NCBI GenBank assembly: GCA_003971905.1
Contig: RSEE01000074.1
Span: 248,001-312,000 of the forward strand
DNA from: Moniliella sp. 'wahieum'
Taxonomy: Eukaryota
DNA length: 64,000 bases
Reading direction: 5' to 3'
Within the stretch, counting starts at the first letter, position 1. Every line of letters starts with the position of its first letter. Shown here in pieces: positions 6,786 to 58,884 of the stretch. The notes under the pieces were generated by a model. That model was given only the letters and a program-made list of their open reading frames with translations. It was not told the origin of the DNA and ran no database searches. Both the position numbers and the translations under genes were made by a program.

Positions 6786-9145
6786 AGGGCTTGAAGCTCT
6801 TGAAGGCTGGGAATGAAACATCCGAAACAAGTGCACAAGGGACCGGGAGTATGAAAAGCGAGCCACACAAAAAGCCCTGACGTGTGGCTTTGATCCCTGT
6901 GCCAAAGCCTCTGTTCCATCTTTACTGAATCTATGCTCGCGTCCAAAAAAGTCAGTAAGAGAGCACCATTGGGGGGGGGCATTGAAAGTTCAGTTGAACC
7001 CGTGCTCGGGGTCCTTCCCTTGATATTACAGGGCGTAGATATGTTGGACTTTGGCGGTTGTCGTCGGCAGCCGAATGCTTGGTGGCGCCTAGTCACTCCG
7101 AAAGGGGCCGGGCAGAGATGTTGTTACAAGGGTGAGCAAAATATGGCTTTTTGATGGAATGCATGTCACATGTCAGCTGTCATGTCATGGATTTGATGAG
7201 CAGATTATCTGAGCGTGTGCGATACCATGCGACTGGGGCGACCCCAGGGACATCGGGCGAAGTCTGCGTGCGACACCTCCTTTCGATCATATCTCTGGGG
7301 CTCCGCAGGGCTCCACTTGAGATTCTCCGAAAGGCGCGAGGCTGGGAAGCTTGAACGTTTGCAATTGGAGCATGAAACTACGTACATCCAGTGAACGTTT
7401 GAACCAGCCGCAATAGGGCATAGCCAGGAAAATTTGAAACCATAGTATTCTCCGATTACCCATTAGTCATCTTGTCTTCCATCAGGCTGATCATTGGTCG
7501 GTCATTAACCGGTAACCGGAGGCCGCCTGCGGCCTCAGCTTGAGCGCCGAAGAAGGCGGAGAGGATGCAGCTTTCCAATGCCAGTACTTGCACTTAGCTG
7601 CAATGTACACTCGCGCCCACCGTTGCGCTTGTCCTCTGCCCGCGCCAGATCCAGGACATCGGGTAGCCCCTGGCCATTCCGCCCTGCGCCCAGCGCTCAG
7701 CGCTCAGCCCTCTTTGCGCTGTGGACGAACGATGGACCCTTTTCTAGACCCTACTGAGGGTACGCCATGGGCTCGCGGTCCCGCGATCCCGTCGGCTCCT
7801 GCGCCCCTTCTGCGCCTGGGGCACCCTTGCGCAAGTGCACCCCTGCGTGCCCGGATTGGAACACGTCACGGCATCACAGATAGATCGGTTACCGCATGTC
7901 ACCGCGTCACACGTTACTCCGCACGATGCAAGTAACTGAGTACACTGCCCAAGTTGAGTGCGATGATGAAAACGTTGAACGCCACACAACTGGGGCTCAA
8001 TAATTGACGTTTGGCGTACTTCAAACTTGAAGCTTCAAGCTTCAAGCTTCAGGCTAGCTTCAGGCCCCAGACCCTACGGAGAGATTTTGGCCCTACTGGA
8101 CCCCATCTTTCGTCATCGATCATCTCGCATTTCCTATTAATCCTCCCGCACCGCTTCGTCCGAGGCTCCTCCGCACCCGCTATCGAACATTGAGCGCGAA
8201 CAGCATATCCTCTATCTTCGAAAGCACCACCGCACACTAAAGCTCTCGCTGTAGTGGTGTCGCACATCCGCCACGACAAAAGCCTCTTTTCCCTATGAAC
8301 TTGTATGAACCACGGCAAAATTACTGCTTACCGGTATAGGTGCGTACAAGAAGGAGAGGCTGAGCCGACGCGTTCCAATAAGCGGCCCCTCCTCGGAATC
8401 GTCCGGATTGTACAATGCACCTCTGGATTCATGAGTTGTGTAGGCTTGCTGTTACATATGTCATCCATTATCTTTTCGATGTTTTATCGATTATCCGCCG
8501 TGATCGGGTGGCCGGGCCCTACGACCTAACACACCCTACCCTACCTACCCTACCCGGAAGCGCACAGGGTAACACCTTATAGGACGACGGTCGATAGACG
8601 GAAGCACCGTTCTGCAATATGTAGCTGCACGTCATAATATGGAGGGTCGTCGATGATCATCATCTTCTGCAGATGAGATCTGATGACACACATCGTCGTC
8701 ACCGATACAACTATCTATTATGGCAAGCGCGTTTTCCAGTGCATGATGGTGTCAAACTGTAGTTGTGAGATGAACGAGAAAGATGGAGAAGTCTACTGCA
8801 CACTATATGTGAGCGGGAGGGGACTGTGGTGGATGGTTGGTTTTAGGGCGACACAGTGCAATTAACTCCTCACCGAACCTTCATAACTGCCATTGCATAT
8901 GTCGTATCGACGCGGTTGGTCATCTCGTATTGCCAACCAGATCAGAACAGTATAAATACTGTGCGCCCTGATGATGCATCCTCTTCCTTCCCCGCCTCCA
9001 TTCCCATCCGCTTTGAGTCATCTGTGTCACTAATTCTTGCCGTCTATTGCAACCTTCGGTGTTCAGTACAGGCCCTTTTCTTTTCTTCCTACTACACACC
9101 TACCGCCTTTTTCTCGTGTTGCCTCATCGTCATCATTGATCGGCC

Positions 9146-10233
9146 ATGCAAAACGACACCTTTGCCCCTCTCATCACATCGCTACTACCTACCTCTTTAT
9201 GTGTGGGTGCCGACGCCAGTTCTATCCCCTTTGTCCAGCAAAACCAGTACAACGTGGCCCAACACCCTCCTTATTCAGCTCCGTCCCAGCAGATGCCCAG
9301 CTCGTTTCTGCCGATGGCAGCTCCGACGGTGCCTCGCCCCAGTCGGACGAAGGCCAAGCAACCGAGCCCCAACAACATAGTACCCCAAGTCCAGCAAGGC
9401 ATCCTCCTGTTAAGCGTTCTCGCGAAGAACGTGCCTCTCGCCGCCGGGAGCAAAACCGGAATGCCCAGCGCGCCCTTCGCCGCCGCAAGGAGACACGCAT
9501 TTCAGAGGTATGTCATTTCTTTCTTCTGTTGAGAATTTGCAGAGGCTGACCTGTACACACTTTTTTTATCTGCCAGTTGGAGGGCATGCTGGTAACCATG
9601 AAATCCAGTGAGAGTGTTCTTGCTGAGCGCAACGAATCCTTGGCCACTATGCTGAGCAACTTACGGCAAGAGAACATGCTCCTGCGGAGAATGGTCCCTT
9701 CTTTGCCCTCGGTTCCTTCGTCCCAAGAGAGTCAAAGTCAAACGCCCTTTCCATCACCACCGAAGACAACCTGTTACGCCCCGATTATGGAACAAGCTCC
9801 AACCAGTTCCGATGGTATGATTGGAATCTCTCCACGCCGTGGAAAGAGTTCGTCGTTCTGCGATCCATCTGGTCCATTGTACGATACAGAAACTGCCGCC
9901 CTTCTGCGCCCCAGCCGCGCTTTGTCGTTCCATAAAGGTGCTATTCTGCCGACTGGACCTCAGCAGGTTGTTTCAATAGACGGCATCCCTTCCGAGGTCA
10001 GTGGACTCCCTGCGGTCAAGAGTGAAGACGGTTCTGAGGCCCAGTCGGAACATGGTGGTGAGGGACTTTCCTTGTTGCCCACACCAACAGTTGACGCTGG
10101 TAAAGCATCGCTACTCCCGTTTTCTTCCGTCCTTCCTACTGGACCACACATTTTCCGTTCGCCGTTCATGGCCGAGGAAGAGCCGGGTGACGTAGCTTTG
10201 CCGTTGAACAAGTGTAACGTATTTTCGCTGTAA
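9146..10233 (+). CDS. bZIP transcription factor (Yap/AP-1-like basic region)
   Basis: Basic region RRREQNRNAQRALRRRKETRISE is spliced (intron 9508-9576, GTATGT..GCTGAC..CAG) to a zipper LEGMLVTM...NESLATMLSNLRQENMLL. One frameshift near 9310. TATAAA at ~8951. Confidence 0.85.
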
Positions 10234-11915
10234 CCGACGCCTTCTTCCACGCAAGTATCAAGTGAGACGTCTCTTCTGCCCCATCTCGCTACCGCCTGCC
10301 ACACATTCAACATGCTGAAAGAGCAAAAAACACGCGTTGTTTGAGTGTGCAACACAACGACCCGAGACCCGCGCTGTACACATTTGACTTTTCTCCATCA
10401 TCAGGTTCGCAGACCACTACCCTTACTCCTTTCCTTCCCACTTATCCGACTGGATATTCTGGGAGCATTGGCCATCCTGTATACATCTCATGTACTCCCA
10501 AGCGCTTTACGGACCTCACACTACTAGTACCTCTTTTGACATCCATCGTCGTTTTTGCTCTGATAAAAAACTTGTGCCACCCATCCTCCTCAACAACCCG
10601 TAGCATTTACGAAGTACTAGTGGGATCAAACAAAACGCGTCGTGTTTTGCTGACGGCAGCGAGGGTTTGTGATGCGCTAATCGCGTGAGCGGCCTCTTCA
10701 CGCACTGTGTGTAGTTCGATAGTTTTACCATAGCTCGCACTACAAGTTGCATGCATTGAAAAGAGATGTGCATACGATTTGAAACGCATTACTGAATTAG
10801 TATTACTGGGCCTGCTTTTGCTGTACTTTTGGTTGTCGTGTTTCTCCCTTCTTTCGATATATGGGGAGAAGCATATACCGCGACCTTTTACGGTTCACAC
10901 CGGCGGCGAGGCGCCATAGCGTAGCGAGACGTCTTGATGCACGCACTATGAAGACAGCAACAGCGGCTGCTGAAGCAAACTGTATGAAAGAATCACGTAA
11001 AGGGGATCTACTGGGTGCGATATGGGCTTTGGATCTACGAAGCAGGTGATGGTAGTTAGACAGAGGAGAGAGATACTACTTGTCCCTAGAAGACGTGGCC
11101 ACGCCCATGCCACATCAGCCTCCAAGAGTCCGCAGAGCCTCGGGGCCTACTGTGTGGAGAGGGATTCAGAGTGGGGCTGCTAACTATGCGGCTTCGTCTC
11201 TCGACCACGCAACGCACCATGACCTTTTCCCAGCCTCCAAGGATTGAGCTGGAGCAAGGGGGCAAATTGATAGATCGTACTGAATTATAGCGAAACGAGC
11301 CGGCGATTCTTTGGAGAGGTTACCGTTGCCAACAGTTATCACCCATCTATATGGATCAGAGAGATACTACACTTTTTACCTGGGTTTGACGATCGGTTGG
11401 TTAAAACGCCAACCTGCATCCCCCTGGGAACATGGGGGGGGGTGCGAATGCTCTCCTCCTAGTGTGGGCGGGACACGATGTTGATTTCGTTGGGTACTTT
11501 CCACCGACTGCAGGTGTCGCGGCAAGAATGGGAAAACGTCATCGCCTTGCGTGCCCGCCGTAAGTGGCCTGCGTTTGGCATTTGTCCAGCCGAGCAAAAT
11601 ATACGTGGTCACCAAAAGCAAATGTATCTCTGGCTGTAGTCACACCAGCTCATATATATAGGATAGTGTACTGCCCGATGAGGCTTGGGCTTGAAGGCAA
11701 CGAGGAAGGCAAATACTACGCCCAATAACTGTGAATAATGTCTGGAGGTTTGCGGAAGACATGCATAAGACGAAACGTGAGGGTAGGCTCTTATAAGGGG
11801 TTAAGCTGGTTCAAGCTGATCAAGGCCAAAAAGTGGATTTTTTTTAAGAGTTTGAAAAATGTTGTCCCAAGCCCCAAGAATCCGCGGAGTGGACGAGGCG
11901 GCGCGCTAAGCCAGT

Positions 11916-13817
11916 TTAGCTTACAAACGCATCGGGGGAATTGTGTTGGCTGCCTGCAGCTGCAAGAAATTGACCTTGGCCGCATCGTAGTCGTTCCACT
12001 CGTTTTGCGAGAGGCACATAAGCGAGAACTCGGCGTTCATCCGTGTCTCGGAGCCAAGGCGGACCACCATGGCCTGTTGTTCGGGTGTCAAGCCAGCGGC
12101 TGGGGATGGGGCAGCCACAGTGGCCGGCCCGGCGGGAGCGGCTTGCTGGGGAGCCCAAGCATCTGTGCGCGTATTGCCGGAGACAGAGCTCGTCACTTAA
12201 GATGGTGCATGGCCAACCAGCTGCGAGAGCCGGTGATCCGGGCGCAGCGGGAGCGACGAGAAAGGTGCGATCAAAGCTCCGGACGCCTCCCGACGTCACC
12301 TCCGTGAACTCGCCGTGAACGTTGATGAAATAGTCCATCGGTTGCTCTGTCATCCCCGGTACAGGCGGGCGAGTGGAAGGGATGGTCCAAGCATCGAAAC
12401 AAACTTGGTCGGGTCCGTGGTCGGGTGGCGAGTTTGAGGGAGGCGTCGCAAGAATTTGACAATGCTGTCAGGCCCCACGTGCACGCCGCGAGAGGGCGAG
12501 GCGGCCCCCAAACGCATGATATCGTGTTGTTGGAGATCACCGAACACATCGTTCCGCAATGACTTTTGGCGTTTCATCGAGTTCAAGAACCCGGCCGCCT
12601 TGGCCCGCGCGGGGGAGGTGAGATGTACATGTAGCTGAACACTGCTTGAGCGTCGTACACAGGCCTCAGAGAGTCCACATTGGTGTCCGTGGTGTTCATG
12701 AACCTAGTGTGGCAGGGTTAGTAGGCGAGGAAACGAGGGTGGAATGTTGGCAAACTCACTTGTCGAGGAAGGTGGACACCGTGGAGTCTGTGTCCAACGG
12801 GGGGAAAACAAATGATGGTTGGGTGCTGAGGGGGATGGGGATAGGGGGTATGCCCGCAAAGTGGGCAGCGGATGTAGCAGCAGTGTTCGTCTTCTTATTG
12901 GCGCTGGGGAGTTGAGACGCGACTTGTTGGGCTGCGGTACGCTCAACCGGCTTGAAGTCAAGGAGGGTGAGTGAGGGGAACTTGACCAACACCTCTTGAC
13001 GATACCCGGCCTCATTTCCGGCGGCCTCCGACGTTTGCTGGACAGGATTGCCGACCAAGACGAGCTCGGAGAGGGAGTGAAGATTCTTCCGGCCAAAGTG
13101 TAGGTCCTTGGTCCACTTGATGTCGTTCCCCTGTAGCGACAGGGCATTGAGTTGGGGGAGGTATTCCGGCAATGGACTGATCGGAATGAGAGTCTTGAAG
13201 TTGTTGAACGCCAGAGACAGGGTCTGGATATTAGGGTACATTCCTTGATCAGCTTGAAGAGCGCTGCCGCCAGGTGGGTAGATGCGCCCGGCGCGCCAGG
13301 AGGTTTGATCCCAGCCTGTTGCAGGATGGGGTCAGCGGCCATGTTCTCCAGATTGAGCGCCTTGCTGGACTCTTGCCAACGGGAACGCAAGTACTGGCGC
13401 AGCGTTTCAATACGTCCAGAGAGCGCTGCAGTTTGCTTCCGCTTGTTGGCGGAGCCACGAAGAGCAACGCCACGAACCCGAGCAGCAAGCGCAGGATTGC
13501 TGCGGTTGCCAGGACGGGAGCTACGGGGCGCAGGTCGCCTGAGGCTGTCTGATGGATGGAGAGATGTGTAAGTAGAAAATGAGGAGCAATTGGGGAGCGA
13601 ATGATACGCACGGAGCGACGCTTGCCAGGGCGCGCCGTTGAAGCATCGCGCATGCCCACATCCTCGTTGATGCGTCGAATGAGGCGGTTGCGGCCGCCAC
13701 CACCGCGGCGCGCACCGCGGGCATTTCCGCGGGAACGAGTGGCCGACCCTCCTCTGGTCCCGGCCACCGCATCCGCAGAAGGGGCGGCGGAGGCGTCTGG
13801 AGGCGCGAGAAAGACAT
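11916..13817 (-). CDS. MEX67: mRNA export factor Mex67/NXF1 (LRR, NTF2-like and TAP-C/UBA domains)
   Basis: RG-rich N-terminus, ALNLENM, LRR (IQTLSLAFNNF, LNALSLQGNDI, ELVLVGNPV), NTF2 (INVHGEFTE..RSFDRTFLVAPA, WPCTILSD) and TAP-C (ETRMNAEFSLMCLSQNEWNDYDAAKVNF..IPPDAF). Two introns and several indels. Confidence 0.93.
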
Positions 13818-14200
13818 CGGGGTTGGAGGGAGGAAGAGCGAAGTGGTGTGGCGGCCGTCGCGAACCAAATCGCGACGTCGGACACTGCATAGGCTGGGCG
13901 CCCAAACGAAAATAAAGTAGGCGCGTTACATAAGCACACGCCCCACTGCTCCAGTGTGTCGGCTGAGGCCAGCATGCGCAGCGACAGGCTGTTGAGACTT
14001 GAAATTGCAAGTATCCTACTGGGTTGCTTCTGTTGCTTCCCGCTCGCATTTCGGCCCTCGGCCTAAACCTCCAAGGCACTCCTACTCCTACGCACCCTCT
14101 GCTCACGCTCACTTCGCTCGGTGTGGATCAGACCGGGGTATAGTATTTTCTGTGCGAACACAACTTCAACCCGAACCTCATTAAGCCTTGGTCTTAGTCC

Positions 14201-26429: not shown

Positions 26430-28084
26430 ACCCGACATGGGCGTCTATCCTTTTTTCTCCTTGTTGCAGCATCCGACCGTGTACCAGGGGGCCGGTTGCC
26501 TTTGCATAGGGACCACCTGTCGGGGCGATGATGCGCATGATGGATGGGGCCTTGGGGGAATGGCATCAACAGGCAGTGGCAGAGAGTGGCTGGACAGGCC
26601 CGACCGAAATGCTGGGTGCGATGGAGGTAATCAGTGGCGCGTGTGTGTGATGCATGGCCGGTGATGCGGCGCTCGCATTGGCGCTTGGTGATGCCAGTGA
26701 TGCAGGGGACGTGTGCATGTGAAGCGGACGTGCAGCATATCACATGTGGCGTGGGCACGTGAAGCGCGAGTGTGGGTGAGTGCGCGTGAGGCCTGCGCGG
26801 CTGCAGAGCACCGAGTGATTACTGATCGCGTGCGCGCCTACCTACAGTGTGGACGTGGCGGAACGGCAGCAGTGTGGCGCCCGTGACTGGTGACCGGTGA
26901 CTAGTGACTATTCACTTGTCACGCGTTTCGCCACAGTAGCTGAGCCGCACAGGCACCTCCTGGGCGTGTGCGTGCAGCTATTTAAAGTACGACCAGGCTG
27001 ACTAAGTGCTGCGCTTAAGCACTACGGATGTGCTGATTCATGATGCATGATTAATGATTGTCCTCCGCTGCGCCGAGTGCTGGCTGACCTGCAAGGCACA
27101 AGGGCAGGGGGGGCTGTGGCGCTGTGATAGGGTTTGTGTTCTGCATTGGGGCATGGGGCAGCGCAGTGGAGCAGCCCGGGCAGGGGCACAGTGTGTGGCA
27201 TTGGTTGTGGGCACTGGGCCCGGGTGCGGGTGTCTTGCTCCAGCGCAGCCTGGACCACCACCAGCATCCCGTGTGGCCCCCCTGTGGCTGCAGCTGCAGA
27301 CCTAAGACCGAGGGCGCAGGCCAGGTCAAGCGCACCAGCGCGCTGTGCCTTGCGACGCCCGACAATAATCAAGCTGAGCTTCGCACTCCGTAGCAGGTTG
27401 GGTGCGGCTCAAAGGCTCCACCGCTAAGCTTCAACTTGAAGCTTGAAGCCAAGCTTCTAAGCGCTGCGGCTGAGGCCTGGCCCTGCGGGGCTCAGGGCAA
27501 GGGCTGCGTGCTGCTGCGGCTGGTGCGTCCCTTTGGTTTCTGTTTCCGCGTCTGCTCTGCTTGCTTTGCTCCGCTCTGCCCCTCTAGCTGCTCTTCTTGG
27601 TGGGCTCCACCACCTCAGCCCCTCTCCGTTTCCTTTCTTTTGCCCGGCATGGGCCTTGGCGCCCGTTTTCTGCGCCGCTCCGACGAGCCTTCAAGCGTCT
27701 CCGCCGCCCCCTCTGCTCGTCAGGCGGTCTGGGTCATCGGCGGCCGAAGCCTTAGCCTCCGTCTCTGCCTCCGTTTCTCCGCCCCACAACAAACCACGTC
27801 CCTCCCGTCTTGCCGCTCTCGGCCTCCGCCGCCCCGCCCGCAGGCGCGATAGCGCCGACGACCGTCCTGCTGCCTCTCTCGCCACTCCCGCTCCCGCTCC
27901 CGCTCCCGCATCCTCCGCTCCTCCACTCCTCCCCCACTCAACCTCAGTACCGCCCCTCGTAGTTCTACCATGCCTCCTCCGTTGTTCCCCCCTCGCATCT
28001 ACATGTCTCCCAGCACCACCCCGCCAGCGCTCCCCACCTGCCGCAGCACGCGCGGCTCCCAATCGGTACAAGCGCCTCAGCGCC

Positions 28085-32393: not shown

Positions 32394-32466
32394 GAAGCAT
32401 GGAAGCATGGAAGCATGGAAGCATGGAAGCATGGAAGCATGGAAGCATGGAAGCATGGAAGCATGG
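32394..32466. repeat. (GAAGCATG)n octamer tandem repeat, 9 copies
   Basis: Read directly from the sequence; perfect copies. Confidence 0.97.
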
Positions 32467-32500
32467 TGGTTTTTTGGAAGCCTCCCGTCTGTTTACCCTT

Positions 32501-33146
32501 TTACCGGAGAATGTAGGACATGGCAAACTTTCGGAAGCCCGTGTCATCCATTTTGAGCGGTGTGTCGGCTGACGTGTCGGCTGGCATGTCGGCTGGAAGA
32601 AGGGGGTGCTGCGTCACTGCGTGGGAAACAGGTGGGAAATAGTAGGGGGTGCTAGGGAGGGGTGCCGGGGAGGGTCAGGTGGGAGAGGGCACGGCGCTTC
32701 GTGCGTCGCTCCAGTCTGGCGAGTCGGTTTTCTTCAGTCCGTGCCGCTTCATGAACCGCCGGGCCCACTGGTACCCAACTTTCTTGTTGGATTTGCGCGC
32801 AGCCAGGAGATCGTTGGCCCCTTCAATCACAGTCATCAACAAAGACTCTTGCGTGGGATGGTCCGACGCCCGCACCCACTCCACCAACCCACGCTCGTCC
32901 GTATCAGTGAGCAGCGCACCAGGACCATGCTGGTACAGAGAGGACTGGATGCCCCTCGTGCGACGAAGGAGGGTGGCGTACGTCACGCCCCAACTCCTTG
33001 GCCGCCTTGTGGAACTTGGGTTTGGTAGGATCGAGTTCGTACGCGTACTGCAATGCCAGCTGTACCTTTTTCTCCTTCTGTTCGGCCACGGTGCGTCGCG
33101 CCTCAGCCTGCGGCGGCTGGTCCGGGTTCCGCCGCCCGCGCGGCAT
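32501..33146 (-). mobile_element. pogo/Fot1-type transposase-derived ORF: psq-like HTH plus CENP-B/Tc5 HTH, no intact DDE domain
   Basis: Joining frames across a G-run at ~32988 gives KVQLALQY...FHKAAKELGVTYATLLRRTRG...LLTDTDERGLVEWV...ANDLLAARKSNKKVGYQWARRFMKRH, the typical Fot1/pogo N-terminus. First stop at 32675. A downstream MDDTGF at ~32535-32551 resembles NxDETGF. No TIRs found. Confidence 0.75.
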
Positions 33147-34004
33147 AGCAGAGCGGTCAATTTGACTCGTTCAACGTAGGCGGCAGGCGGAATGAAAGCA
33201 AAAAGAAGATAAGAGGAGACGTGCGGTCTGGCGATCTCTTGTGGGGCGGGGCCAAGCGCGGGCGGATGTGGTGGGGGGTGGGGCGAGTTGGTCCAATCGA
33301 CTGCTAGCCAATAACGCCCCACCCCGTGCTCGGTCCGAACGCGCCGAGGATGCAATAGGCAGCAGAGCTCGGGCAGCAGAATGCAAAGTCCTGTACGCGT
33401 ATGGGGCGAGTGTGCACAGAATTCGCTCGGGCGACGTGGTCGAGGGTCCGACGTCCAATTTGGGCATCCAGACCTGTTTTCTACAACGATTAATGACACG
33501 CCCACATCTAGCTAACTGTACGTGTCAAGGACCCTTCTGACAGGAACTGGCAAGTCAGAGAAGACCGGTGTATATATCTCGCAGGGGGGTAGTATTATAA
33601 GAGGGATCCACTCATTGTATTGCCTGCCCCATCTCCCCCGCACAAAGCAGGGACCAACGATCTCTACAGATCTCAAGCGCAACAAAGTCAAAGTCATCAG
33701 TACTCAGTAAAGCCTAACCTAGTCATCGACATCAATCATCAATGCATCAATCATCGACAGACATCACACATCAGTACATCAGTACTCAGACTGAGTGCGT
33801 CAGCCATCGTTTTGGGGTTGTGGATTCTCATTATATCTCATTCCCAGTGGCAACACCCACCGTTCATAGGGCGTTCCGAAGAGCGATAATCGATAATCGA
33901 GTTGAACGTTGAACGTGTTGAACGTTGAACGTTGAACATTGAACGTACCGAACCTTTAATTCAGACCAAGCCATATTGGTGCAATTGACATGTGACATGT
34001 GACA

Positions 34005-34116: not shown

Positions 34117-37043
34117 ATGTGATACGATACGACGTGTCAAGGTGACCTGTGATGTGGTGCATCAAGTCCCACAGCGCTACACCAAGCACAGTCTGAGTAT
34201 CTGAGAGTCCGAGACCCTCCCGCTGTGCTCTCTCTTCTCTTCAAGCTTCAAGCTTTATTCATCCGTTGATGAGACCTGGAGTCCTGAGCCTGATGGTCCT
34301 CGAGGGCAAAGCAATCGCACTGGTGGTGGTGGTCTAAGCCAACGGAACTTCTAGGCCTAAGGAGGAACTGAAGGGACGGTGGCCAAAAACACACGAGCCA
34401 CCCGATGGCCCTCCATCCTAGACCCAAGTGCACACACAGGAGACCTCAACATCATCAATCATTCAATGCCTCCACAGAGGGCAGGGTCCCACGACCTTTT
34501 GGGACGAACTTGGGGATGGGCGCTGCTCCAGGGCCACAGTCTATGCACTATGACAAAGCATCATATGTGCACCACGGGAACACTCTGTCTGCTCTTCGAA
34601 CATGTCAGTAGGTTCTTACCCCTTATGGGGAGTGCCCCTATAACTCAGACGCTGTTGGATGTGAGCCTCAAGCACTGAAGCTACTGACGCTTGAAGCTTG
34701 AAGGGACGCCAGCAGTTGAAACGGCCTCGGGACTGGCCCAGGGCTCAGGCCTGCTTGAGGCCTGTGAGGCTCAGGTCGGACAGTAGAGAGAGGGTGGCCC
34801 CGGCATCATAGGAAAACTCAAGTTTAACGGCGATTAGCCTGCGTAGGTTCATCGATCATCACTCACATCATACACCCTATTTTTGTTGACAAAGCGGGTG
34901 AAGCTTCTGAAGCCAGAAGCTGCTGGGGACCGCCATGGGTATTTTTGGCCACCTAATTTGTTGACCGTGGTGACCTCAGCCTCACCAGCCTCAGGCCGGC
35001 CTCACCCCTCACCCTGAGGCCTGAGAGGCTCCTCGATCACAATCCTAACGTGCGCGCCTAACGGGAGCGGTGAGTGATGAGAGTGTGAACTGTGCTGCAA
35101 ATTGGTTGATTGATTAATGAAAAACTGAGCCTCGTGTTGGACTTGCGCATCCTAGTTTCGACCTAAGGCCTAAATCCTAAATACTGAGGACTGAGGCTTA
35201 GTCCTCAGGGACTCAAACACTCAGTACTCAGCACTCATTGATCATGATGTACGTGGCGTGCAGATGTAGGTTCTGGGAAGAAGATGAAAACACCGTGTCG
35301 CGACCCGAACAAAAAGCAATGGAATTCAGGCTGAAGCTCTATTGAAGTATCTGAAGACGTTTTTGAACGATGTGCGATGATCGATGGCGTGTACTGAGTT
35401 TTGAGTCTTGAGTTTGAGTTTTGAGTTCTGGGTACGTTGAGTACTGCTGCATCATGAATGAGTACAATGAGTACGAGTACATGTCGAGTACATGAGTACA
35501 AGCAAAAAAAGCTACAAAAAGCTTAAGATTAGTACAGGCCTTAGCCTAAGGTCTAAGATCTAAGCCCAAGGCCGCCTTAGCTTAGGTCCACACTTCGAGA
35601 GGCCTCCCGGCTCACCAGTGCCTCACCAGCCTCACCGGCACCAGCCACCATTCACCGGGCCTCACCGGCATCTGCCCCCACACTACGCAGCTACTGCGCA
35701 CGAAACGACATTGCTGTGATGGCTATACGTCATGCATGATGCATGATGAGTGGATCTCGAGATGCTACAAACTACTAGTTGTATTACCTAGCTGCGTTTG
35801 TTGCTCGTAAACAAGAAGCTAGTTGTTTGTTGCTAGTTATGCATTATGAGTCACACCGGTTACCAGAGCGCGTAGCGCGCGTACAGTTCGTTCCTTACGG
35901 TTATAACCGTCGACGATATCGATCCGATCTCGACCTCTTCAACGGTCGGCTCTCTCACACATCTTCGTTTCACACCAATCCACACCTCTTTGATCATGGA
36001 TCTTTCATCGATCGTACCGCTATGCCGGGAACTGAGAATCTGGGTGGGAAATCTGAGCTAGCCCAGGCTAGCACAAAAGGGTCGATCCCACGTTGCATGA
36101 CCGATATCGATGATCTGAGATCTGAGATTGTGGCTGAGCCTCGGCTTGACGCCTGGCTGGGTCCGACCGGAGCCGACCCGATACTGACCCGTTCCGAGCC
36201 ATGGTCTCAGTCCCCAGCCCTCCCCAGCCGCGGGGTGATTTTCAGGATGAGGATTTAACTCGCACGTGTCACACATGCCAAGCGCAACTACGCGCTACGG
36301 GAGTACTGAACTGGGTAACCAGTAACTAATAGCAACTGTAACTAGGTAAGTCAAATGCCCGTATACACACGTGCTTCCAACGATCTCAGATCTCAGATCT
36401 CAGATCTCAACGTTCACGTTCAACGTACGTTCATATTCTCAACATCCAACTCAAGTACCTCAGTATACTGACGCGTGACGCTTTAGCGACGTTGAGTACT
36501 GAGTAAGGAGTACTGCCTGAGAAATTCAGTAACGGAGTACCGAGTCTCACATGTCAGAACTGAGTATGAGCTGGTTGCACACTACTGACGTACTGATGGC
36601 TTCATCGCCATTTTGCCACCCTCTGTTGTCGATTTGCCATCGTGAGGAGCGGCTGGGCTAGCTACGAGGCCTGGAAGCTTTTGAAGCTTGGATCTGAGAT
36701 ATGAGATCTGCCAAGTTGAACACCACAGAGCTTTCACAAGTCACATTCCATCATATCGCTATCAACCTTCTCACCTTCGCCGTCGCCTCCGTCTTCACAT
36801 TCTTCTCTTCTCTCAACCCCTGCCGCCTGGCCCAGAAGTGCTCCTTACAAGGGTCTACCATTGGGAGTACACTCGATGCAGCTGTAGCTGCCTCACTTGT
36901 CGGTCTCATCTTTCTCTTATTCCATCCGGCAAATACTTGACGCCTCCCCCGCCACAGTCCCCAGTCGTCGAAAGGTCACTTGGATCTCTCGCTACACTCT
37001 CATCGCCCATCACGCACCATATCTGCAAGGGCATACGCCATCG

Positions 37044-43033: not shown

Positions 43034-45354
<2,321 letters not shown>

Positions 45355-46515: not shown

Positions 46516-46622
46516 TGGGCTTACTACTTGCACGCTACGATACCTCCTGTCTTCCCCCTCGCCTGCTATATTCCACCCATCTTGTTTGTCTCCTCGTCAC
46601 CTTCTCGGGTTTCCATCCCCAT

Positions 46623-48751: not shown

Positions 48752-51700
48752 ATGTCCACCCCCCCCGTCCCCGTCGTCCCCGCGGCGTTCCAGGCGCTTG
48801 CCCCCCGCACGCCTGGCTCCCGCCGCCCCTCGCTCGCCGCCCCGCCGCCCAGCCCCCGCAGCAGCAGCTCCCACGACCCCCTCTCCGCCCCCACCGTCGC
48901 CAACCGCATCCACTCCGTCCTCGCCTCCATCCCCAAGATCAGCAATGTCTCCTTCATCCCTGCCGCGCCCCTCTCCGGCACACGCCACGCCGCCAGCGTC
49001 CGTCCACGCGCCGCCCAGCTCCGCATGACCCTCCGTTCCCGCGAGCTCACCCCGCCCCCAGGCGCCCTGCCTGGCACTGGTCTCGACTACATTGCCCGCG
49101 TTGTTGTGCCTCTTGCCTACGAGCTGTTCGAAGACGGCACTCCCGTTGTCACTGCCGTCGACCGCGAGGCTCTGCACACTGTCACCCCCGTCCCAGCCCT
49201 CTCCGACACGGTCGCGGCCGAACGGCGGTGCATTGCGACCGGTCGCAAGGTCGTCCTCCGCTCCGCCTCCAACCGCCGTGTAGTCGAGGTCTGGGCCGGC
49301 GCGGCGCTGGTCGCGTCAGAGGACGTGACCGATCTCCATGGCGAATTTATCACGGATGGTACGTTGCTTGTTCTGGTCCGCTCGTCTTCCTTGTTCTGGC
49401 AAGCCATAGCTATACCCCCCCCCCCCCCCTTCTTCCTTCCCAACTAACAGTTTGTCTGTTCCGTCAACAGAAACCTATGGCACCCTCGACATTGATGGCA
49501 CTACCTCCACTTTGATTTACAGTGCCGAGGCCAATGCTCCCGATGGCCACAAGTATGACTACCTGCCTTCCTTGGGCGAAAAGGCAGGCGGTCACAAACG
49601 GCCGACAATCTATCGCTTCAAGTGGTCCGAAACCCCGCGCCCAACGACATCACCAGTGTTGTCGTCGCTGCGCCTCCCAAGGGCCGGGTGAAGCCCGTTG
49701 TGCCAGACTCGGCACCGGAAGAGCTGCGGGGCATTATCTTTGCCCAAGCGTCTCTCTTGGCCGCGATCGAGGGGGAGGAGAACGCGCACCAAGGCGTTGT
49801 GGCGACCGGATACCAGCCCCTGGGCAATGGAAACCGACTGGGCGTGATCTACTGCAGCAACCGTCCGTCAGACATTTACCTTTTGACCTATGCCTCGGAG
49901 CCCAAAGCGACCACCAAGTTCCAGTGGCGCAATCTGACTGCCAGCCAGGCCAAGGTCAGCACGACGGGCAAGACGGTGGAGGGCAAGGAGTACGCGTGGC
50001 GTCGTCCGTGCATCCGGACTGGGTACCGGGTCGATGCCGAGGGCTTGGTGATGGGTCAGCAACAGATTTACGCCGTTGGCACAGCCCGCGAGGGACCTCA
50101 TCGCTCGGCGGACTTTTTGCGCTGCCTGGTGCGAAGTGTTCCGCTCGGTACGGCGGACCACTCGCCGGACCCGCCCCAGGCTACCGAAAAGGTCGACCCG
50201 CTCGTCTTCCAGCAAGATGTCTTGGTTGCCTTCCCGACGCCCTTGCCTCCGCTTGTGCCGGTTCGCAGGGCCTGGGCACACGTGCCCTCGGCTGGTGGGA
50301 GCGGAGCGGCTTCGCCTGCACCGCCGGCTGCCTCGTTGACACCCGAAGTGGACCTGGAGACGCTCCCCGCCGGAGGTGCCCAGCAATTCTTTGTCGAGGG
50401 GGCGATCGAGCGGCCCTTTTTGTCGTACGGCCGGGAACGTTCGGGCGGGCGGCGCGCGATTACCGACGATTTGTTGTTGGTGAATGGCTTTGTCGGGTCC
50501 GAGACTGGGTTTTACGCGATCCGGATTGGGCAAGATGCGCAAGGCCAGATGCAGTTTGAGGGAGAATTTTTGCCTTCGGCGACATTGTTGGCGACGAATG
50601 GGCAAGGCCTGGCGGCATTTGCTACCACCTCGCCTACCATCCCTCCGCTGCTCGGGATCTTTACCATTGCGCCGGGCCGGGATGCGTTTGCGGCGTTCCG
50701 GCGGCATGAGGTGTCGACAGTGTGGGACTCATTGAAGGACTCCAAGGCGAGTGTGCTGGATAAGATGCTGCTTCGGCTCGCGGCTCATACCCACGGGCCT
50801 CGGTGTTGACAACAATTGCGATGCGATTGTTTTGGCTCCGTTTCATGCTCAGGTGGGCGTCTCCCGCAACCGCTCTTCTCCTCCCCTCGCTCGTTCGCCG
50901 CGGCATCACCGCCCCCGCCGGTTCTTCGCCCGCTGGTGCGCCTCCCAGTGCCCCGCCTACCATCCTCTTCCCCCATGGCGGCCCGCACTCGAGCACGGCC
51001 TACGCGTTTGACGCGGACCGGGCGACGTTGGCTGCTGGGGTACAAGTGATTATGCCCAACTATACCGGCAGCGTGGGCAAGACCGATGCGTTTGTCCGCC
51101 GCCTGATGGGCCGGGTGGGGGACTTGGACGTGAAAGATTGCGTGATGGTGATGGACCAGTTGGTGGCGAAGCGGATGGTGCAGATTGATCCCAAGCTGGT
51201 CTTTGTTTCGGGCGGCTCGCACGGTGGGTTCATTGGCGCGCACTTGTTGGGCCAGTACCCGGGCAAGTTCCGTGCTGCCGCGTTGCGCAACCCGGTAATC
51301 GACATTGCGGCCATGGTGCACACGACCGACATACCCGATTGGTGCTATGCCGTGCTCGATGTACCGTACAAGTTTGATGCGCCGCCGTTGCCCGTTTCGT
51401 TGGAGGCTTTGCAGGCGATGCGCGCTGCCTCGCCCATCAGGTATGCCGACAAGATTCAAGATGCCTTGCTGCTCTTGTTGGGCGAGGCGGATCAGCGGGT
51501 CCCGCCGGCACAGAGCAGGTTGCTATACCATGCTTTGCGCCAGCGCGGCGCGGACGTCTCGTTGCTCTCCTTCCCCGGCGCCGACCATGCACTGGAAACG
51601 CACGCGGCACAAGAAGCTGCTTTCGATGCGACCTTTGCCTGTTTGAGCGCATGGGGGCCAACAGGCACGCCAGCCTTGGGCCCAACTCTGATCTGGGACG

Positions 51701-51768
51701 ACCGGAATCCCTCAGGCCTCACTCCTGTCCCGGCGCCCACCCCGGAGCCGCGGGTAGGAACAAATTAG
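48752..51768 (+). CDS. S9-family serine peptidase (acylamino-acid-releasing enzyme-like)
   Basis: LIYSAEA, RLGVIYCSNRPS, ILFPHGGPHS, PNYTGSVG, DVKDC, nucleophile GGSHGGF, LRNPVIDI, SPIRY, LLLGEADQRVP and FPGADHAL. Intron 49358-49469. Frameshifts present. Confidence 0.92.
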
Positions 51769-51946
51769 TAATGCTCAGCGCTCACATTCCAACTGATCTC
51801 CATGAGGGTAGAACGTGCCGAGTAGATAGGGGAAGGGACAGCCGTTTGCGAAGAGGAGTAGGTGGGGTGTGGGCGGGTGCTTTTAGCAAGCGGATGGTGC
51901 GCAGATCTGTAACGAAATGAGCAGGTTTAAGTGGGCAAGACAAAAA

Positions 51947-52042
51947 CGACAACGACAGGACTCGAACCTGTGCAGGCAAAGCCTAATTGATATCTCACAC
52001 AAGAGTTCGAATCAATCCCCTTAACCACTCGGGCACGTTGCC
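51947..52042 (-). tRNA. tRNA-Ser(CGA) with 14-nt intron
   Basis: Reverse complement: acceptor GGCAACG/CGTTGTC, D-loop AGTGGTTAAGG, ATTGA-TT-CGA-A[CTCTTGTGTGAGAT]A-TCAAT, long variable arm AGGC-TTT-GCCT, T-arm ACAGG-TTCGAGT-CCTGT, followed by T5. Confidence 0.95.
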
Positions 52043-52744
52043 TTATGAAGTAACGCCCTAATGTATACTTGATCATTTTTTCGTTTCTTCCTTGACCATG
52101 CCGTGAGGATGACTGTCGTTAGCAGTAGGTAAAGCCTATCAATTTTCCGCGCATCTCTCAAGTGGAGTTACCGGGTTCGGGATTGGGTTGGCTCCTGCCC
52201 TGATCTATACATAAGCCATGTACACTACGTCTGGGAGGATGGCTGATCGGGGGATGAGACCGACAATAGCGTGCAATGTTCTTTCTGTTCCCACCTCGAC
52301 CACATAGGATTGTCGAAAGAGATGAATGAGGATGGGGGGGGTACCGAAGGCAGAGGTGGGGGATATGGTGGGAAAGAGGCACGAATTGGCGCACCTGATA
52401 CGCGGAGGCTACTGTGGCGACGGGCATGAGGCCGTCCCAACTGGAGTAACGCAGAGAGAGCACAGTGATGGGTGCAAAATGATAAGAGCCCAAAGGAACG
52501 TGCCTAGACTGTGGTATGTAACTTGTCGGGCAAGCAGATGCTCTACGTCGGGCTCGACAAAGCTGAGACAAGAGCAAAAAAGCAAAGGGATGTGGTGTGG
52601 CAGGGCGAGAAGCAACGAATGGCGAGGGCGAAAGAACGGTACTGGACCAGTTATGAGCGGAGAGGAGGCGGGAAGCCAAGGGTAGTGATGTAGTAGATGA
52701 TCAGCGGGTTCTTCACAAGCGGGATGCCTGGCCAGTGCACCAGG

Positions 52745-54475
52745 TTAGACACGGGACACGACCTGAGCCCAGCCAGGTTCAAACTCATCATCACTCGCAT
52801 CCAGGTCGGCGAGGGAAATGAATGTGCCGGGCGGCGGGAGGCGGAGGCGATGCGGTGAGGCAACAGAAGGGTGGGGGGGCGAGGGGCTGGAATGAAGTGG
52901 AGTGCTGGTCGGGCGTTGCGGCAGGAAGCAGGGGCGGAGAGGGTTGGATTGGCTCGGTTGGTTGGGGGGAAGGAGGAGAGCCGAGGCTGAACGAGGGCGA
53001 GACGGGCCGTGCTCGTGGCGGTCGGGACGGTGGGAGCGGAAGAACCGGAGGCGAAGCAGAGGTGAATAATGAAGCTGCAATTCACCTGTTGATTCGGGCT
53101 CAGCCACCAAAGCAATTGGAGAAGGGGGAACAGAGAGACTGTCCTGTTGCCCGTCACAACCACGATGGGAGAAAGGGACCGCAGCATGGGCGGTGTGGAG
53201 GGCGAGACAAGAGGGGAGCGCGCGCCATCAGAAGTAAGGGAACGGGAACTGTGTGCACTGCAACTGCGCTGGGCAGCTTGCTTCTCAGCCAGGTTTCGCT
53301 GCTCTCGTTGGTCTCTGCGACGTCGGACACGTTCCAACGCGACCAGATGGTCAGGCACTTGGTCTTGCGTAATGCTCAACACCCGCCCCGTTGTTCCCTT
53401 GCGCCGGGCCGGGAGAACAACCCCCTCTGCCCCACCACCCCCACGACCTGTCCTCCACACGCACACCCGTCCGCTCCTGTAGTTCCCGCAGCATCCCATG
53501 CCCCGTCGCCGGCTGATCCCGTCCCTCGCCGACGCGCCAGAGCAATCTCTGCCTCGGCTGCGGCCACACGGGGGCTTTTGGGCTCGGTAGTGGATTAGGG
53601 GTGGGACCGGATGGTGTGGAAGGGGAAGGAGGGAGCGAAGGGGATCTTTTTCCGTCAGAGGCAAGGTCCAGCTTGGGGCAGGGGGCGAAGGAGGTACGCC
53701 TTCTTCCCCCTCGTACGAGATGACCACTGACGGCGTCGATTCGTTCCCCAGCGCGGAAGAAAAGGAACCATTGCCGGCGGCAGAAGAGAACGAGGCAGAT
53801 GGGGTACGGTCACGGTCCAGTTCCTGAAACGCATCCGGTCCCCCACCACGCAGCATGGGCCCTATATCAAGCAAACCATCAGTATCCCGCTTGGCACACA
53901 AGAGCACGGGGGCGGGGGGACGTACCAGCGGGGAAGTTGGTGGAGCATGTGTCAGGCCACCCCAGAGAGGCAATTTGATGCGGAGGTAATGCCAGTGCGG
54001 CTTGCTCGCAGCGGACTGGCCCAAGCGGCCGACTGGGGCAAGGCGACTCCACCTGTAGTGTGCGGGACCAGAGGGCGGGCCGAGGGGTCAATGTCAAAGC
54101 GCCGGGCGCGCGGCGGAGGGCGGTAGGCATCGGTGCGAGAAGACCATGCGAGTCGAGACACGGGCTCGGTCGCAACGATGCCTGGAAGCGAGCAATGCGG
54201 TCTTGCAGGGAGCCAGGCGAGGAGGGGGAGGTGGAAGCGGTGGGCCCCGTACGCGGCGGTGCAGGCTGCGTCTCAAACGCCCGGCAGCCGAGTGCGGGCG
54301 CGGGAGCAGCGGGCGAGGGGGCGCATCGGCGGCGGGGGGCGCAAGGGCGAGGGAGAAGGCAGGGGGCGGGTGCGGGGCAGGCGCAGGACGGCGGGCGGGG
54401 GGGGCGCGCATTGTTCTGGGTGGCGCGCTGGAGCGATGCAATGCGCTCGGACAAGGACGAGGCGGTGGCGGGCAT
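52745..54475 (-). CDS. Proline-rich hypothetical protein
   Basis: ATG at 54475 (MPATASSLSERIASLQRA..SLQDRIARFQ), coiled ERVRRRRDQREQR and C-terminal DDEFEPGWAQVVSRV*. Assembled across several frameshifts. No recognisable domain. Confidence 0.55.
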
Positions 54476-54961
54476 GTCGCGCAGGGTGTATGCGCTGTGG
54501 CGGCGCGTGGGCGCATGCGGCGACGTGTGGGGGCGGCGGCGGGCATGGGCATGGGCGTGGTGGCCAGGCGGGCAGCGGGCAGCGGGCTGGAGGCAGACAG
54601 GCCCAGGCAGCCAGATGGGGGCGGGGGGCTGAAGCTGGGCGTGGCTCTGCCAAGGCAAGCCGGCTGAGCACTGGGCGGTGGAGCTGGTGGTAAATATAAC
54701 GCTACTTGATGGCTGGCTGCTAATGAGCCGGCACCGCCCCCGTGCGTCTCGCGCGCACCGCGTCTCAGATGGCCGGTGAGCATCACACGTCAGGTGCATG
54801 GGGCTGCGCTGCTGCCGCTGCCTGCGTGTCTGGCTCAGCGCGCGCTCACGTCACGCGTCAGCGTCAGGCCCAGTGGCTCAGTACTCGTCAGGGTAATAAC
54901 GTTCAGCATCAGGTAACTAGAACTAGTCACAGTCACGTCACTGTGACTACCGGCTAGCCCA

Positions 54962-57737
54962 CTACCAGTACTCGAGCGCTCGGGCCGTCGGAGGCTCAGC
55001 CACGCTGGGCTGTCGGCGCATCTGCATCTCGTGCTCTTTCATCAAGCGTTGACGTTCAGCTCCCCCCGTCGCCCCCATCGCCGTCGGTCCGGCCGTCCCA
55101 TACGTTTCCAAGCCCAATGCCAGGTGCGATCGAGGCGTAGAGGCTGGTGCCTCTGATGCCCCCCTCTCCCTGTCTGAGCGAGCGCAAGGAAGAATGGAGG
55201 GAACCTGGCCGTGGCAGCTGTGCATTGCATTAACGTGTAATCATTGAAACAGCCATGGCCATCGACATCCTCAAAAACGCAAGGGAGAAAAAGCAGTCCA
55301 AAAGGGGGCGAGAGCAGCGGAAAAGGGACAGAGTGGGTACAGATCCTCTCAACGAACACACGAGGCACATGGAAGGAAAGGACGCAGGTAGGTGGGGGCA
55401 GATACCAGGAAAAGAGTGCGCATGCATCAGGCCCGCCCGATGCTGTCAGACGAGAGGGAGGAGAGAAGAGGATCAAGGGAGTCGCGTACCACCCGATTGC
55501 CGGAGCGCGTTCGCCAGTTGGGCCAGGCAAACCAGGACTAGCGAGAGAAGGAGGCAGGGTCCGTACGTCGGATAAAGTTGAGGGACTGAGGAGCCCAGAA
55601 CCTTGGCGACTTTGGCCAACTGTTGGGCCATTCGTTCGGATCCGTCCCCATGCGGATTCGTCGCGAACATTGTCAAGGTCGGATCGGATTGGCGTCGAGA
55701 CGAAGAGACAGAGAAGGGGGGCAGGGTAGGAGAGGGAAGCAAGTGCGGCCCGCACCCTTTCCATTCCCGAACCATATCCACCCCCCAGATTCGGCACACT
55801 CGCCCGCCCCGTTGGGGCATGCTCGTCGGTCTGCGAAGGTACCAATGCGAGTAACGAGCGAGAAAGCTTGGCGAGCGGGTGTGTGCGCGCGAAGGAGGGG
55901 AAGGGGTAGGAGCATGCAAGGTAAAGTTCGTGGATGAGCGTGGGGAAGGAGATGCCTTGTTCATGATGCGCCACGACTTGTCGTGCTTGCTACGTTCGGT
56001 GGAAGGAGGAACCAGATGAGCGGGCACGTCCCCAACCACAGCACTCGTCTCCCCATCAGCGTGCGGCGATCCAAACGAATTGGATAGCGTGTTGGTATGG
56101 TAAACGTAGGAGTAGAGGGCGAAGACCGAGACCGGTGGGGGTACCACCGGGGCCAGAGTGAAGGGCGTCCAGTTTCAGAAGGCTGGGAGGAATACCCCGT
56201 TCCATTCCCCTGGAAACAGCCATCTCGTTCCCCACGAGGTGAGGAGGATGTCAGCCGGTCAGGCTGATGATACCCAACAAGGCGGCCGCGCTTTGGTTGA
56301 ACCATTACGGTCGACGAACGAAGGAATTGGAGGAGCTAGTTGGGGTGTGCAGGTCGATCCCCAATAAGGCGGCCGCCTTCGGTTTGACACCTTGCTCCAC
56401 ATCTCCTTCAGCGACCGGGTTGAGAAGCCGACGAGAGGTACTGGGCAACACAGAGGAGAAATAGCACCACTACCAGTGCTGGCCCGATTGCATTGTCTTT
56501 GGCTCCGAAGTCCCAGGGTGGAGGGCCCCGTCAATCCGGCTGAGCCATAGACCGGGAAGGCGAATGACCGGGGCTCCAAGTCTGGGTTGAAGAGCAGGTT
56601 GAATCGAGCGACGTGAGCCGCCCATGGCCCTTTCTTCAGGAGACGACGAGGTGGCCCCAAGGTCAAAACTCTGGCACTTTTTCCGATCATGTCGCCCCAC
56701 TTGGGACGTCATCACATCCGGCATGCACTCGGACCCAAAACACGAGCAACTTATCCGTCCTCTCTGCTTCGACATGCTAAGTTGTCCCTGGTGATTCGCT
56801 CGGGGGACCGAGTGGTCACTGGCGGACCTCAAAGGCCCAGAGGCTATCTGCGAATTTGGTTTGAGGGGTTGGAGGGAGAGGGCTGAAGGTGAGAGGAGTT
56901 ATGACTATGGTAGTGTCCGGAAGAGGGTGTCGAGTGATCCTTGGTGCGACAGGGACAGTGGCCACGAAGCAGACGAGACGAGGCTGTCCTTGCTGTCGCT
57001 TTTGTTCAGACTAAACTCGCACTTGGAAGGATGCATAGCGGAGGTCAAACCACTCGCACTGGCAGTCGACGTTTTGACGAGAAAGAGGAACGCAGTTCCA
57101 TCATGGCCTCGCCAGGGCCCAAAGCAGAGAGCAACTGCATCGGACAGTCCAACCAGCCCAGACCTGGTAGGCCCGAGAAGACCGGGGCGTCTTGATGCAA
57201 GTCGGCGGGTGGTTCAACACTCAGGCGTTTCTCTGGGGGCGACCTGCATCGAGGCGAAGAATAGGATGCGCAGAGGGAGTACGATGAATGGAGCGAAAAC
57301 CTCATATGTGCCTTGTCCCCTTGGGTGTTGGTACTTGCACGCTTGTGCTTGGAGTACGACGGAGGCATGGATAAGGAAGTGGAGCGATGAATGTCCCCGG
57401 TAGAACTGGCAACTGGGGATGTGGGTGGAGACAGGTCCGGCTCCGCAAGGGATGGGGTGTGCATTTGCCTCCCTTGTTGCACACTACCCTCCGAGGGGAA
57501 TTCCAAGCCAGGGGGTGATTGCTGAGGGGCCAGGGAGATACTCATGGCTGCTGCCTGGTGTGCAAGGGCCGCACGATGGCGGGACAAGCCAGAGGAACGA
57601 GATGTGCTGCCAGTAGTGGCGGCTGGGCGAAAGTCGGAGGGGGAAAACAAGGTTGCTTGGCTCGACAGCCTGGGCGATTCCGAAAGATCAGGAGATTGGG
57701 GTGCTGGGCTAGGCTGGGGGCGCTGTATGCTGAACAT
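54962..57737 (-). CDS. Hypothetical protein (fragmented by indels)
   Basis: ATG at 57737 follows a pyrimidine-rich leader. A chain of coding-like minus-strand frames includes globular-looking stretches (KKGPWAAHVARFNLLFNP; ISFPTLIHELYLACSYP; MERVRAALASLSYP). Family not recognised. Confidence 0.5.
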
Positions 57738-58884
57738 GGGTGTGGAAGGAGGCGTGGGGTTGGGAGTGGTGTCGAGGGCGACACTGGGTATTGAGCGCGA
57801 GGGAGGATGCGCTCTGGGGATGGGTTGTGGGGGGGGGAGTCAAATACGCATAGGCCCTGCTGGCGGGACAGTGTGGTGGCCAGCTCGGCTGCAAATGGTG
57901 GAGGAGACGAAGAAACAGCCAACTGCGGAATGCATCTGATCAGCACAAAGAACCAAGACCATTGAATAAAACACCCGAAGAGTGCCAGCGCAACAATTAG
58001 CAACACCTGAGAGGCCTGAGCGCCAGAGTGCCAGAGTGCCAGTGCCAGAGCGCCAAAGCGCCTGGGAATTTGAAGCTTGAAGCTTGAGACAGGTGTGGGC
58101 CAAGGGACAGGCATGTCGGGGATGCGGCCCACCCGGGCAGATCATCGATCAGCAGCCCTGCCCCGCACGTGGATCGACCCGCAGACAAGTTAAACATTGA
58201 GAACAATGGCCGGTGGATCGAGGATTGATCCGGTCCATGCTTGAGGCCCTCGAAGCTTGCGGAGCTTAGCGCTAAGGCTAAGCGCTTACTAGCTTTTGCT
58301 CTTGAAGCTTGAAGCTTGAGGCTTAGGCTTAGGCAGAGAAGCCTTGTGGCCTCGAGGATCGATGATTCGTGAACGGTGACCGGTGAACACGTTGAACGGT
58401 TATCGATATCGATTATCGGTTATCGCCGTGCTCACGTCAGCATCGGCGCGCCGGTGGCCAATTGCCGTGACATGGACACGTAACACCGCTACCAGTGATC
58501 ATCGATCATCGATCATGTGAGCGCGCATGTGGCATGCGAGTGTAAGCGCTCCTATAATCCACCCACCATCTCTCCTGTTACTATCACTTGTAGCAGCAGC
58601 AGCCAGCGACACCCACAATTAACACCTCTGCCTAAATCTAATCACGCCCGCCCCCTCTGTTTCCTCTTTTCCCCTCAGTCCGCAGTCCACACTCAGTATC
58701 CTCGCCAGTCCCCGGCAGCTCTTTTGCTACGACGGATCGCGTATGACCGTGACCGACGACTACTCATCACGCATTCAAGATGCAACGGTTCCGCCGCTCA
58801 GAGGCCTGAGCGCCTGAGCATTCCCAGCGATGGCAGGTTATAGTGACTAGCTGCACGCCTCGATTTGAACGCTAGGAGCGCCCC

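Follow-up and report, generated by a model that had tools for sequence, protein, structure and literature searches.

Flank-copied palindromic 7-bp insertions at T-N-A sites of a Moniliella genome, probable excision footprints of a cut-and-paste transposon

What places palindromic hexamers at 7-bp steps between genes? The question is raised by a 64,000-nucleotide stretch of the Moniliella sp. 'wahieum' genome (contig RSEE01000074.1, positions 248,001 to 312,000; hereafter the window, on C74 of an assembly of 69.5 Mb in 223 contigs), whose non-coding DNA repeatedly shows the form TSA-N4-TSA around a palindromic core (S, C or G; W, A or T; N, any base). An initial annotation took these for tandem arrays of interchangeable palindromes joined by a free C or G, and proposed either cooperative binding sites or a mutational process. 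We find direct repeats around a palindrome copied from the flank, which arise, as comparison of sister copies shows, as single-step 7-bp insertions. With a probability of about two in three, we read them as excision footprints of a cut-and-paste transposon that makes a 7-bp target duplication and closes its flanks as flush hairpins.

The pattern itself is real, and the palindrome strings quoted in the annotation stand at their positions. TSA-N4-TSA occurs 129 times in the window, and the N4 is palindromic in 65 cases against 8.1 expected. The base between hexamers is not free: both triplets are the same in 61 of the 65 (central bases GG 33, CC 28, GC 3, CG 1), making a direct repeat around the palindrome. 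Markov controls of order 1, 2, 4 and 5 (20 runs each) give means of 1.2–4.3 and a maximum of 9 same-triplet units against the 61 observed, and controls by 2-kb blocks a mean of 1.85 and a maximum of 5. Spacers of 2 (13 versus 10.0 expected) and 6 (2 versus 1.5) between TSA triplets show no enrichment in the window. There the TWA version is more weakly enriched than TSA (8 versus 1.4 expected), and six other odd-palindrome triplets lie at chance level. Three quoted stretches (7340–7400, 34745–34765 and 58266–58285) contain decayed or mixed forms, none of them a strict same-triplet 10-mer. The scarcity of arrays in coding sequence is borne out: blocks conserved with a diverged copy of the locus, which are mostly coding, hold 2 units in 23.9 kb (627 TSA), versus 56 in the remaining 30.9 kb (962 TSA).

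The units are common throughout the assembly. Forty scattered 10-kb stretches (400 kb) contain 346 same-triplet units with all 16 cores, 0–26 per stretch, versus ~13 predicted from the non-palindromic class; this extrapolates to ~60,000 units in the whole assembly. One double-unit pattern has 2,457 genome-wide matches versus 0 for its reversed control, and a scan of all 64 triplets puts TGA/TCA at 19.8-fold enrichment, TTA/TAA at 11-fold and the next at 2.2-fold. Among 80 MTHFR loci from metagenomes (771 kb of other eukaryotes, mostly distant) the ratio is 1.25, without enrichment, and the three at 59–67% identity have almost no TSA-N4-TSA spacings. Because of that ratio we conclude that the trait is not general among eukaryotes but lineage-restricted.

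The core of a unit consists of the two flanking bases and their reverse complement, and is matched to the flank in 52 of the 61 TSA units of the window. On one side the period-7 run typically goes two bases, neither more nor fewer, beyond the unit (of 407 cases in the extension matrix, 49 fall in the peak at (0,2) and 47 in that at (2,0)), and therefore the minimal unit is TSA-xy-y'x'-TSA-xy or its mirror image. Tandem arrays are not the rule: only 15 runs of at least two hexamers occur in the window, and in 27 of 61 units the period-7 run is only 5–6 bases long. Nor are the cores interchangeable, being dictated by the flank, a rule that mixed-core arrays obey as well. Of 23 arrays that combine two different palindromic cores, 21 have a left core equal to the left flank, 17 a right core equal to the right flank and 16 show both matches, some of which are continuing arrays; such arrays are one left-type and one right-type event at a single site. 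Across 162 isolated units, the flank dinucleotide follows the background after TSA, and no upstream base preference of the topoisomerase I kind is seen.

Several lines of evidence bear on how the units arise. First, the locus is present four times in the assembly, the window being paired with C78 (3.3% substitutions) and a stretch of C1 (1.37–1.57 Mb) with C76 (2.8%); across conserved blocks the window matches that second pair at ~70–86% identity. Twelve of the 27 window units between 31.4 and 38.4 kb are identical in the separately assembled C78 copy, and 49 units are identical between two further contigs, so the units are not read errors. An assembly or long-read artefact might draw on the many short indels between close copies (1,341 of one base and 366 of two in 144 kb of C1/C76). 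Given the units shared by separate copies, the coding depletion, the decayed forms and the triplet specificity, we put its chance at practically nil.

Second, the copies differ by whole units. The C1/C76 alignment (144,089 bases) contains 44 indels of 7 bp, versus 28, 29 and 19 of 5, 6 and 8 bp, and 28 of the 44 bear the signature of the unit. For 125 single-unit calls over the C1 and C76 copies, the other copy is filled in 89, empty in 28 and ambiguous in 8. Among the 28 units present in one copy only, 20 are of pure left or right type, with an empty allele that lacks the palindrome; 7 are compatible with slippage and 1 is neither. The rate is one event per 144–200 substitutions (4,032 substitutions, C1/C76). 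Against C78, the remaining 15 of the 27 window units differ, and four (33887, 33986, 35737 and 35837) correspond to exact 7-bp gaps in that copy.

Third, an 860-bp long terminal repeat (LTR) gives the direction. In the best 30 of 40 copies listed, five each carry a private unit (one of them doubled) at a site that is empty in the other 29, and a sixth has a 6-bp near-form; together these make up six of the ten rare insertions of at least 4 bp. In two cases, the carrier is the sole copy with TCA at that site. Because of these private units and carrier-only triplets, TNA is needed at the site and the filled state is derived. The units are products of a lineage-restricted and still recent insertion process.

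Arrays are another matter. They change by whole units of 7 and 14 bp between C1 and C76, as heptanucleotide microsatellites do, and slippage acts on them. Microsatellites copy existing sequence, whereas here the first unit includes an inverted piece that the empty allele does not have: a direct copy, as slippage makes it, accounts for the array changes and fails for 20 of the 28 single units.

These results weigh on the proposal of sites selected for cooperative binding of a factor that reads TSA-N4-TSA. Its appeal is that the units are non-coding and cluster near some genes. A reader of triplets, though, needs no palindromic core copied from the flank. Whole insertions turn over between copies 3% apart, with 15 of 27 units differing from C78 at 3.3% divergence; units lie inside LTRs; and cores occur at background frequency. 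We consider this scarcely credible, the units being single 7-bp insertions with flank dinucleotides at background.

The features on which the argument rests are as follows, in window coordinates and with a strand only where one is assigned.
1123–58515: 67 same-triplet TNA-xy-y'x'-TNA units (61 TSA, 6 TWA), dispersed in non-coding sequence, 0–19 per 4 kb, each taken as the scar of a single 7-bp insertion, core copied from the left or right flank in 58 of 67.
6790–6805 (+): 9-bp form CTTGAAG-CT-CTTGAAG, the full 7-bp target doubled with two palindromic bases in the middle.
15566, 34005, 34063, 35457 and 40367: further 9-bp forms.
8028–8051: AGCT-core array, an expanded left-type scar of a CT-TCA site.
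26889–26909: mixed-core array GG-TGA-CCGG-TGA-CTAG-TGA-CT, a left-type plus a right-type event at the original site GG-TGA-CT, each core matching the flank on its own side.
27039–27059: mixed-core array, original site CA-TGA-TT.
33887–33898: TAA-type unit, which the C78 copy lacks by exactly 7 bp.
33903–33942: ACGT-core array including a 9-bp form at 33908–33923 (full 7-bp duplication plus two palindromic bases).
33986–34002: CATG-core units, of which C78 lacks the first by exactly 7 bp and has the second.
34239–34255: AGCT-core array that has grown by two more units in C78.
35737–35748: TGCA-core unit, again lacking in C78 by exactly 7 bp.
35837–35848: single scar TTA-TG-CA-TTA-TG; the C78 copy has the empty TTA-TG site without the palindrome.
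36386–36416: GATC-core array with a terminal ACGT-core unit, its first two units common to C78.
58071–58515: cluster of AGCT-, TCGA- and CCGG-core units and short arrays (58071, 58078, 58142, 58303, 58310, 58377, 58499, 58506).

An internally deleted solo LTR lies at 34266–34409. It belongs to a family of dozens of copies. The others end in TG..CA with 5-bp duplications, and a 7-bp scar is polymorphic among them.

What happens at a single site is sharply bounded. An empty ba-TNA-xy becomes, in one step, ba-TNA-xy-y'x'-TNA-xy (right type) or ba-TNA-a'b'-ba-TNA-xy (left type); in less common 8- and 9-bp forms the second copy also retains one or both outer bases. On both strands of 750 kb, where two palindromic bases are present, the second copy keeps 0, 1, 2 or 3 bases to the left of the triplet in 725, 62, 74 and 3 cases, versus 8.6, 3.9, 3.3 and 0.6 expected. 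With informative flanks, right and left types balance, numbering 193/175 at 7 bp, 25/31 at 8 bp and 24/33 at 9 bp, and 10–11-bp forms at most 3. Permutation baselines are ~32 at 7 bp and 1–2 for the longer forms, control triplets are far lower per site, and six-base forms are just slightly raised. The duplicated piece is ba-TNA-xy, symmetric around N with a sharp edge two bases to each side, and the per-site frequency of hits is about threefold higher for S than for W (16–17 versus 5–6 per 1,000). The palindrome is even-centred, y being followed directly by y', and odd-type forms stay near control level. Plain 7-bp tandem duplications are no commoner at TSA (44 of 855 pairs) than at control triplets (212 of 3,413), so precise 7-bp duplication does not stand out as a product. 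Spacer-2 forms are at chance level, which rules out a 3-bp duplication combined with a single hairpin.

The bounds speak against replication template switching, in which the polymerase would turn back two bases beyond TNA, read two or three bases from the opposite strand and then anneal again at T. Formally this yields the 7-bp form, T-N-A offering a one-base landing, and it can point to a minor class in which the two triplets are complementary (TGA..TCA or TCA..TGA; 37 cases in a 464-kb sample, above chance, 11 with a right-flank copy). That class possibly consists of longer palindromic overhangs joined through T-N-A. Yet CNG, GNC and ANT provide the same landing without enrichment, neither the 8- and 9-bp forms nor the exact stop after two flank bases is predicted, and the 771 kb of other eukaryotes show no enrichment. 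We regard template switching as very unlikely; a fixed, TNA-centred 7-bp duplication favours a staggered cut with hairpin repair. Of the mutational alternative in the initial annotation, the mutational process and slippage on arrays survive, while hairpin-primed template switching does not fit the fixed duplication. The open chromatin it invoked is not needed for the intergenic bias, because a 7-bp insertion is a frameshift.

Products, direction, rate and bounds are observed; for stagger, hairpin, opening and joining we infer the following course. Integration would make a 7-base staggered cut centred on TNA, with TSA preferred about threefold over TWA, and duplicate ba-TNA-xy. Excision would close both flanks as flush hairpins, which a host nuclease would nick about two bases from the tip to leave the 4-base overhang xy-y'x'. 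Artemis has such a preference for opening two bases off the hairpin tip. End joining would keep one overhang and trim the other by 4, 3 or 2 bases, giving the 7-, 8- and 9-bp forms. Renewed hits at one site would build mixed-core arrays and slippage the longer same-core arrays, and selection against frameshifts would keep units out of exons. Integration and later excision by way of flank hairpins would leave just such a symmetric duplication of constant length, with palindromic bases where the ends meet. Parts of this course have precedents: hairpins on the flanks, opened by the host and end-joined, are described for hAT, Transib, RAG and MULE (PMC5499845), and P-nucleotide footprints of Ds in a fungus, Candida (PMC5873905).

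The weakest step is the enzyme, most likely an EnSpm/CACTA-like transposase of the CMCT clade. A genome profile search places PF02992 (EnSpm/CACTA Tnp2) at two loci, on C17 (E 1e-12) and C34 (E 7e-4).
L125:2762-6372, on C34 (-): Tnp2-like gene with long open frames, between HAD hydrolase and TPT transporter genes.
L124:3000-6700, on C17: second Tnp2-like gene, with an upstream LTR insertion that is lacking in the C62 partner.
The C34 gene is possibly domesticated; it also resembles Plavaka/DUF4218 clusters, which gives a lead. No recognisable inverted ends were seen on it, and none of the 40 candidates scored, out of 611, was a second copy. DNA searches with the PF02992 loci return just a partner copy or are swamped by embedded repeats, and a homologue search among longer proteins finds none at E 1e-10. 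Scans for inverted ends with 5–10-bp duplications in the sampled loci yield only scar arrays and chance pairs, and the 107 occurrences of a candidate terminus motif are all orthologous or LTR-internal matches. PF13359, PF10551, PF05699, PF18758 and PF03184 have 0 matches in the genome, in searches that look insensitive on this assembly (three with silent controls) and so do not imply absence; for PF05699, the hAT dimerization domain, the control was silent.

Two other sequences may be noted. A truncated Tc5/pogo-type DNA-binding domain (PF03221) at 32678–33145 (-) adjoins a nine-copy 8-bp repeat at 32394–32466; only its C78 partner copy was found, and this helix-turn-helix remnant is not linked to the scars. 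A highly repeated piece of 85–145 bp (L125:2380-2468, L017:3709-3852, L026:6517-6659) has 611 first-look candidates, 93–99% identical.

A number of points tell against transposon excision. The main one is that 1.02 of the 69.5 Mb, with several hundred scars, yielded no element that combines terminal inverted repeats with a TNA-centred duplication of 7 bp; nor did the large insertions inspected between close copies, and no inverted termini, CA..TG included, were recovered at either PF02992 locus. The ratio of scars to elements must be very high. The 10–11-bp forms with palindromic bases from both sides are almost absent, and the spectrum, which covers just scars keeping both triplets, is narrower than in Candida, where 128 Ds footprints comprised 28 kinds (PMC5873905). 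Described CMCT members duplicate 2–5 bp (PMC12730594), whereas the scar geometry requires 7 bp.

In a rival course no transposon was ever at the site, and a domesticated or orphan transposase-like nuclease would nick the strands 7 bases apart around TNA. Fill-in would then displace a flap, the polymerase would turn onto it for two or three bases and the product would be ligated to the trimmed flap; alternatively, the filled ends would hairpin directly. Such cutting gives identical products and the same 7-base bound, and it explains the one-sided palindromes, the narrow spectrum and the 1.02 Mb without resident elements. The C34 gene, with its open frames between two ordinary genes and no inverted ends, suits it too. 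On the other side, a fixed-length duplication is the standard product of transposon strand transfer, and no eukaryotic enzyme is known to act in this way. Element-free cutting is in our judgement unlikely, and keeps the weight it has because no element was found beside several hundred scars.

Set against known systems, the scar behaves like a RAG/Transib-type joint. RAG coding joints and Transib or MULE excision likewise leave short, even-centred palindromic additions copied from the flank, with the second end trimmed (PMC5499845). MULEs duplicate 8–10 bp (PMC5499845) versus the TNA-centred 7 bp here, and their PF10551 gave 0 matches in an insensitive search; Muta1 excises mostly precisely (PMC5499845), as against a stereotyped scar at about one per kb. 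Ac/Ds, of the hAT group, resembles our case in leaving P-nucleotide footprints in a fungal host (PMC5873905), but the hAT palindrome is centred on the complement of the element-adjacent base and is odd (PMC5873905), and here the centre y|y' is even; the scar is not an Ac-type footprint. The hAT7 elements of rust fungi make duplications of the same length, 7 bp, within Basidiomycota (PMC12730594). EnSpm/CACTA and the CMCT clade (Plavaka, ESTA, Transib) share catalytic motifs with RAG1 (PMC12730594), and PF02992 genes exist in this genome; EnSpm repeats are also reported in another smut (PMC4824034). We do not file the scar under CMCT, because its members make 2–5-bp duplications.

Transib, for one, duplicates 5 bp, versus 7 bp here. 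The central T-N-A recalls PIF/Harbinger and Tc4/Tc5-type elements, which prefer TNA or TWA targets. A 3-bp duplication such as that of PIF/Harbinger is unable to copy both flank dinucleotides, as the 9-bp forms do, and PF13359 and PF03184 gave 0 matches in insensitive searches.

A similar pattern is described in Ustilago maydis, of the same subphylum. Its 10-bp repeats are intergenic and numerous and have the length of TNA-N4-TNA, and an origin as transposon footprints has been suggested for them (PMC4081816, which cites Laurie et al. 2012). Compared by description, they may be the same thing as the present scar. Searches of a literature with few subscription papers returned no description of such a scar.

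The boldest reading is unlikely: a RAG-like enzyme of the CMCT clade in this smut lineage, with very few short-lived elements or none, would cut NN-TNA-NN and leave P-nucleotide joints throughout the germ line, about one per 150–200 point mutations and ~60,000 scars in all, seeding heptamer repeats and inflating intergenic DNA. It would amount to a sequence-specific insertion mutator with a programmed look.

Under excision, an apparent regulatory code becomes a dated archive of how double-strand breaks were repaired. Each Mb would hold hundreds of natural hairpin joints whose empty sites are known, and from these the stagger, hairpin geometry and end-joining rule of an undescribed enzyme can be read. 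The scars show how unique sequence can give rise to tandem repeats, and with their signature in 28 of 44 seven-base indels the process is a leading source of short indels here. They also supply a testable explanation for the U. maydis repeats, in which footprints have long been suspected. If true, a transposase that forms flush hairpins and has a 7-bp target centred on TNA would widen the known range of the RAG-founding clade.

As to the host, the nearest named relatives of the window's MTHFR are Tilletiaria anomala (71%) and Malassezia, Tilletia and Ustilago (61–66%), which places it in Ustilaginomycotina. The four-copy locus, whose two close pairs are ~80% alike in coding blocks, points to a hybrid, polyploid or co-assembled sample, which explains the 69.5 Mb.

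The window genes are ordinary housekeeping ones: an E1 dehydrogenase (5.4–6.8 kb), Mex67/NXF (11.9–14 kb), MFS, PH-domain and PRPP synthetase genes, MTHFR, a helicase, SPC25, an S9 peptidase, ELYS and a DHX29-like gene. Many of them seem to be split by frameshifts, and the one- and two-base indels between C1 and C76 suggest residual long-read error.

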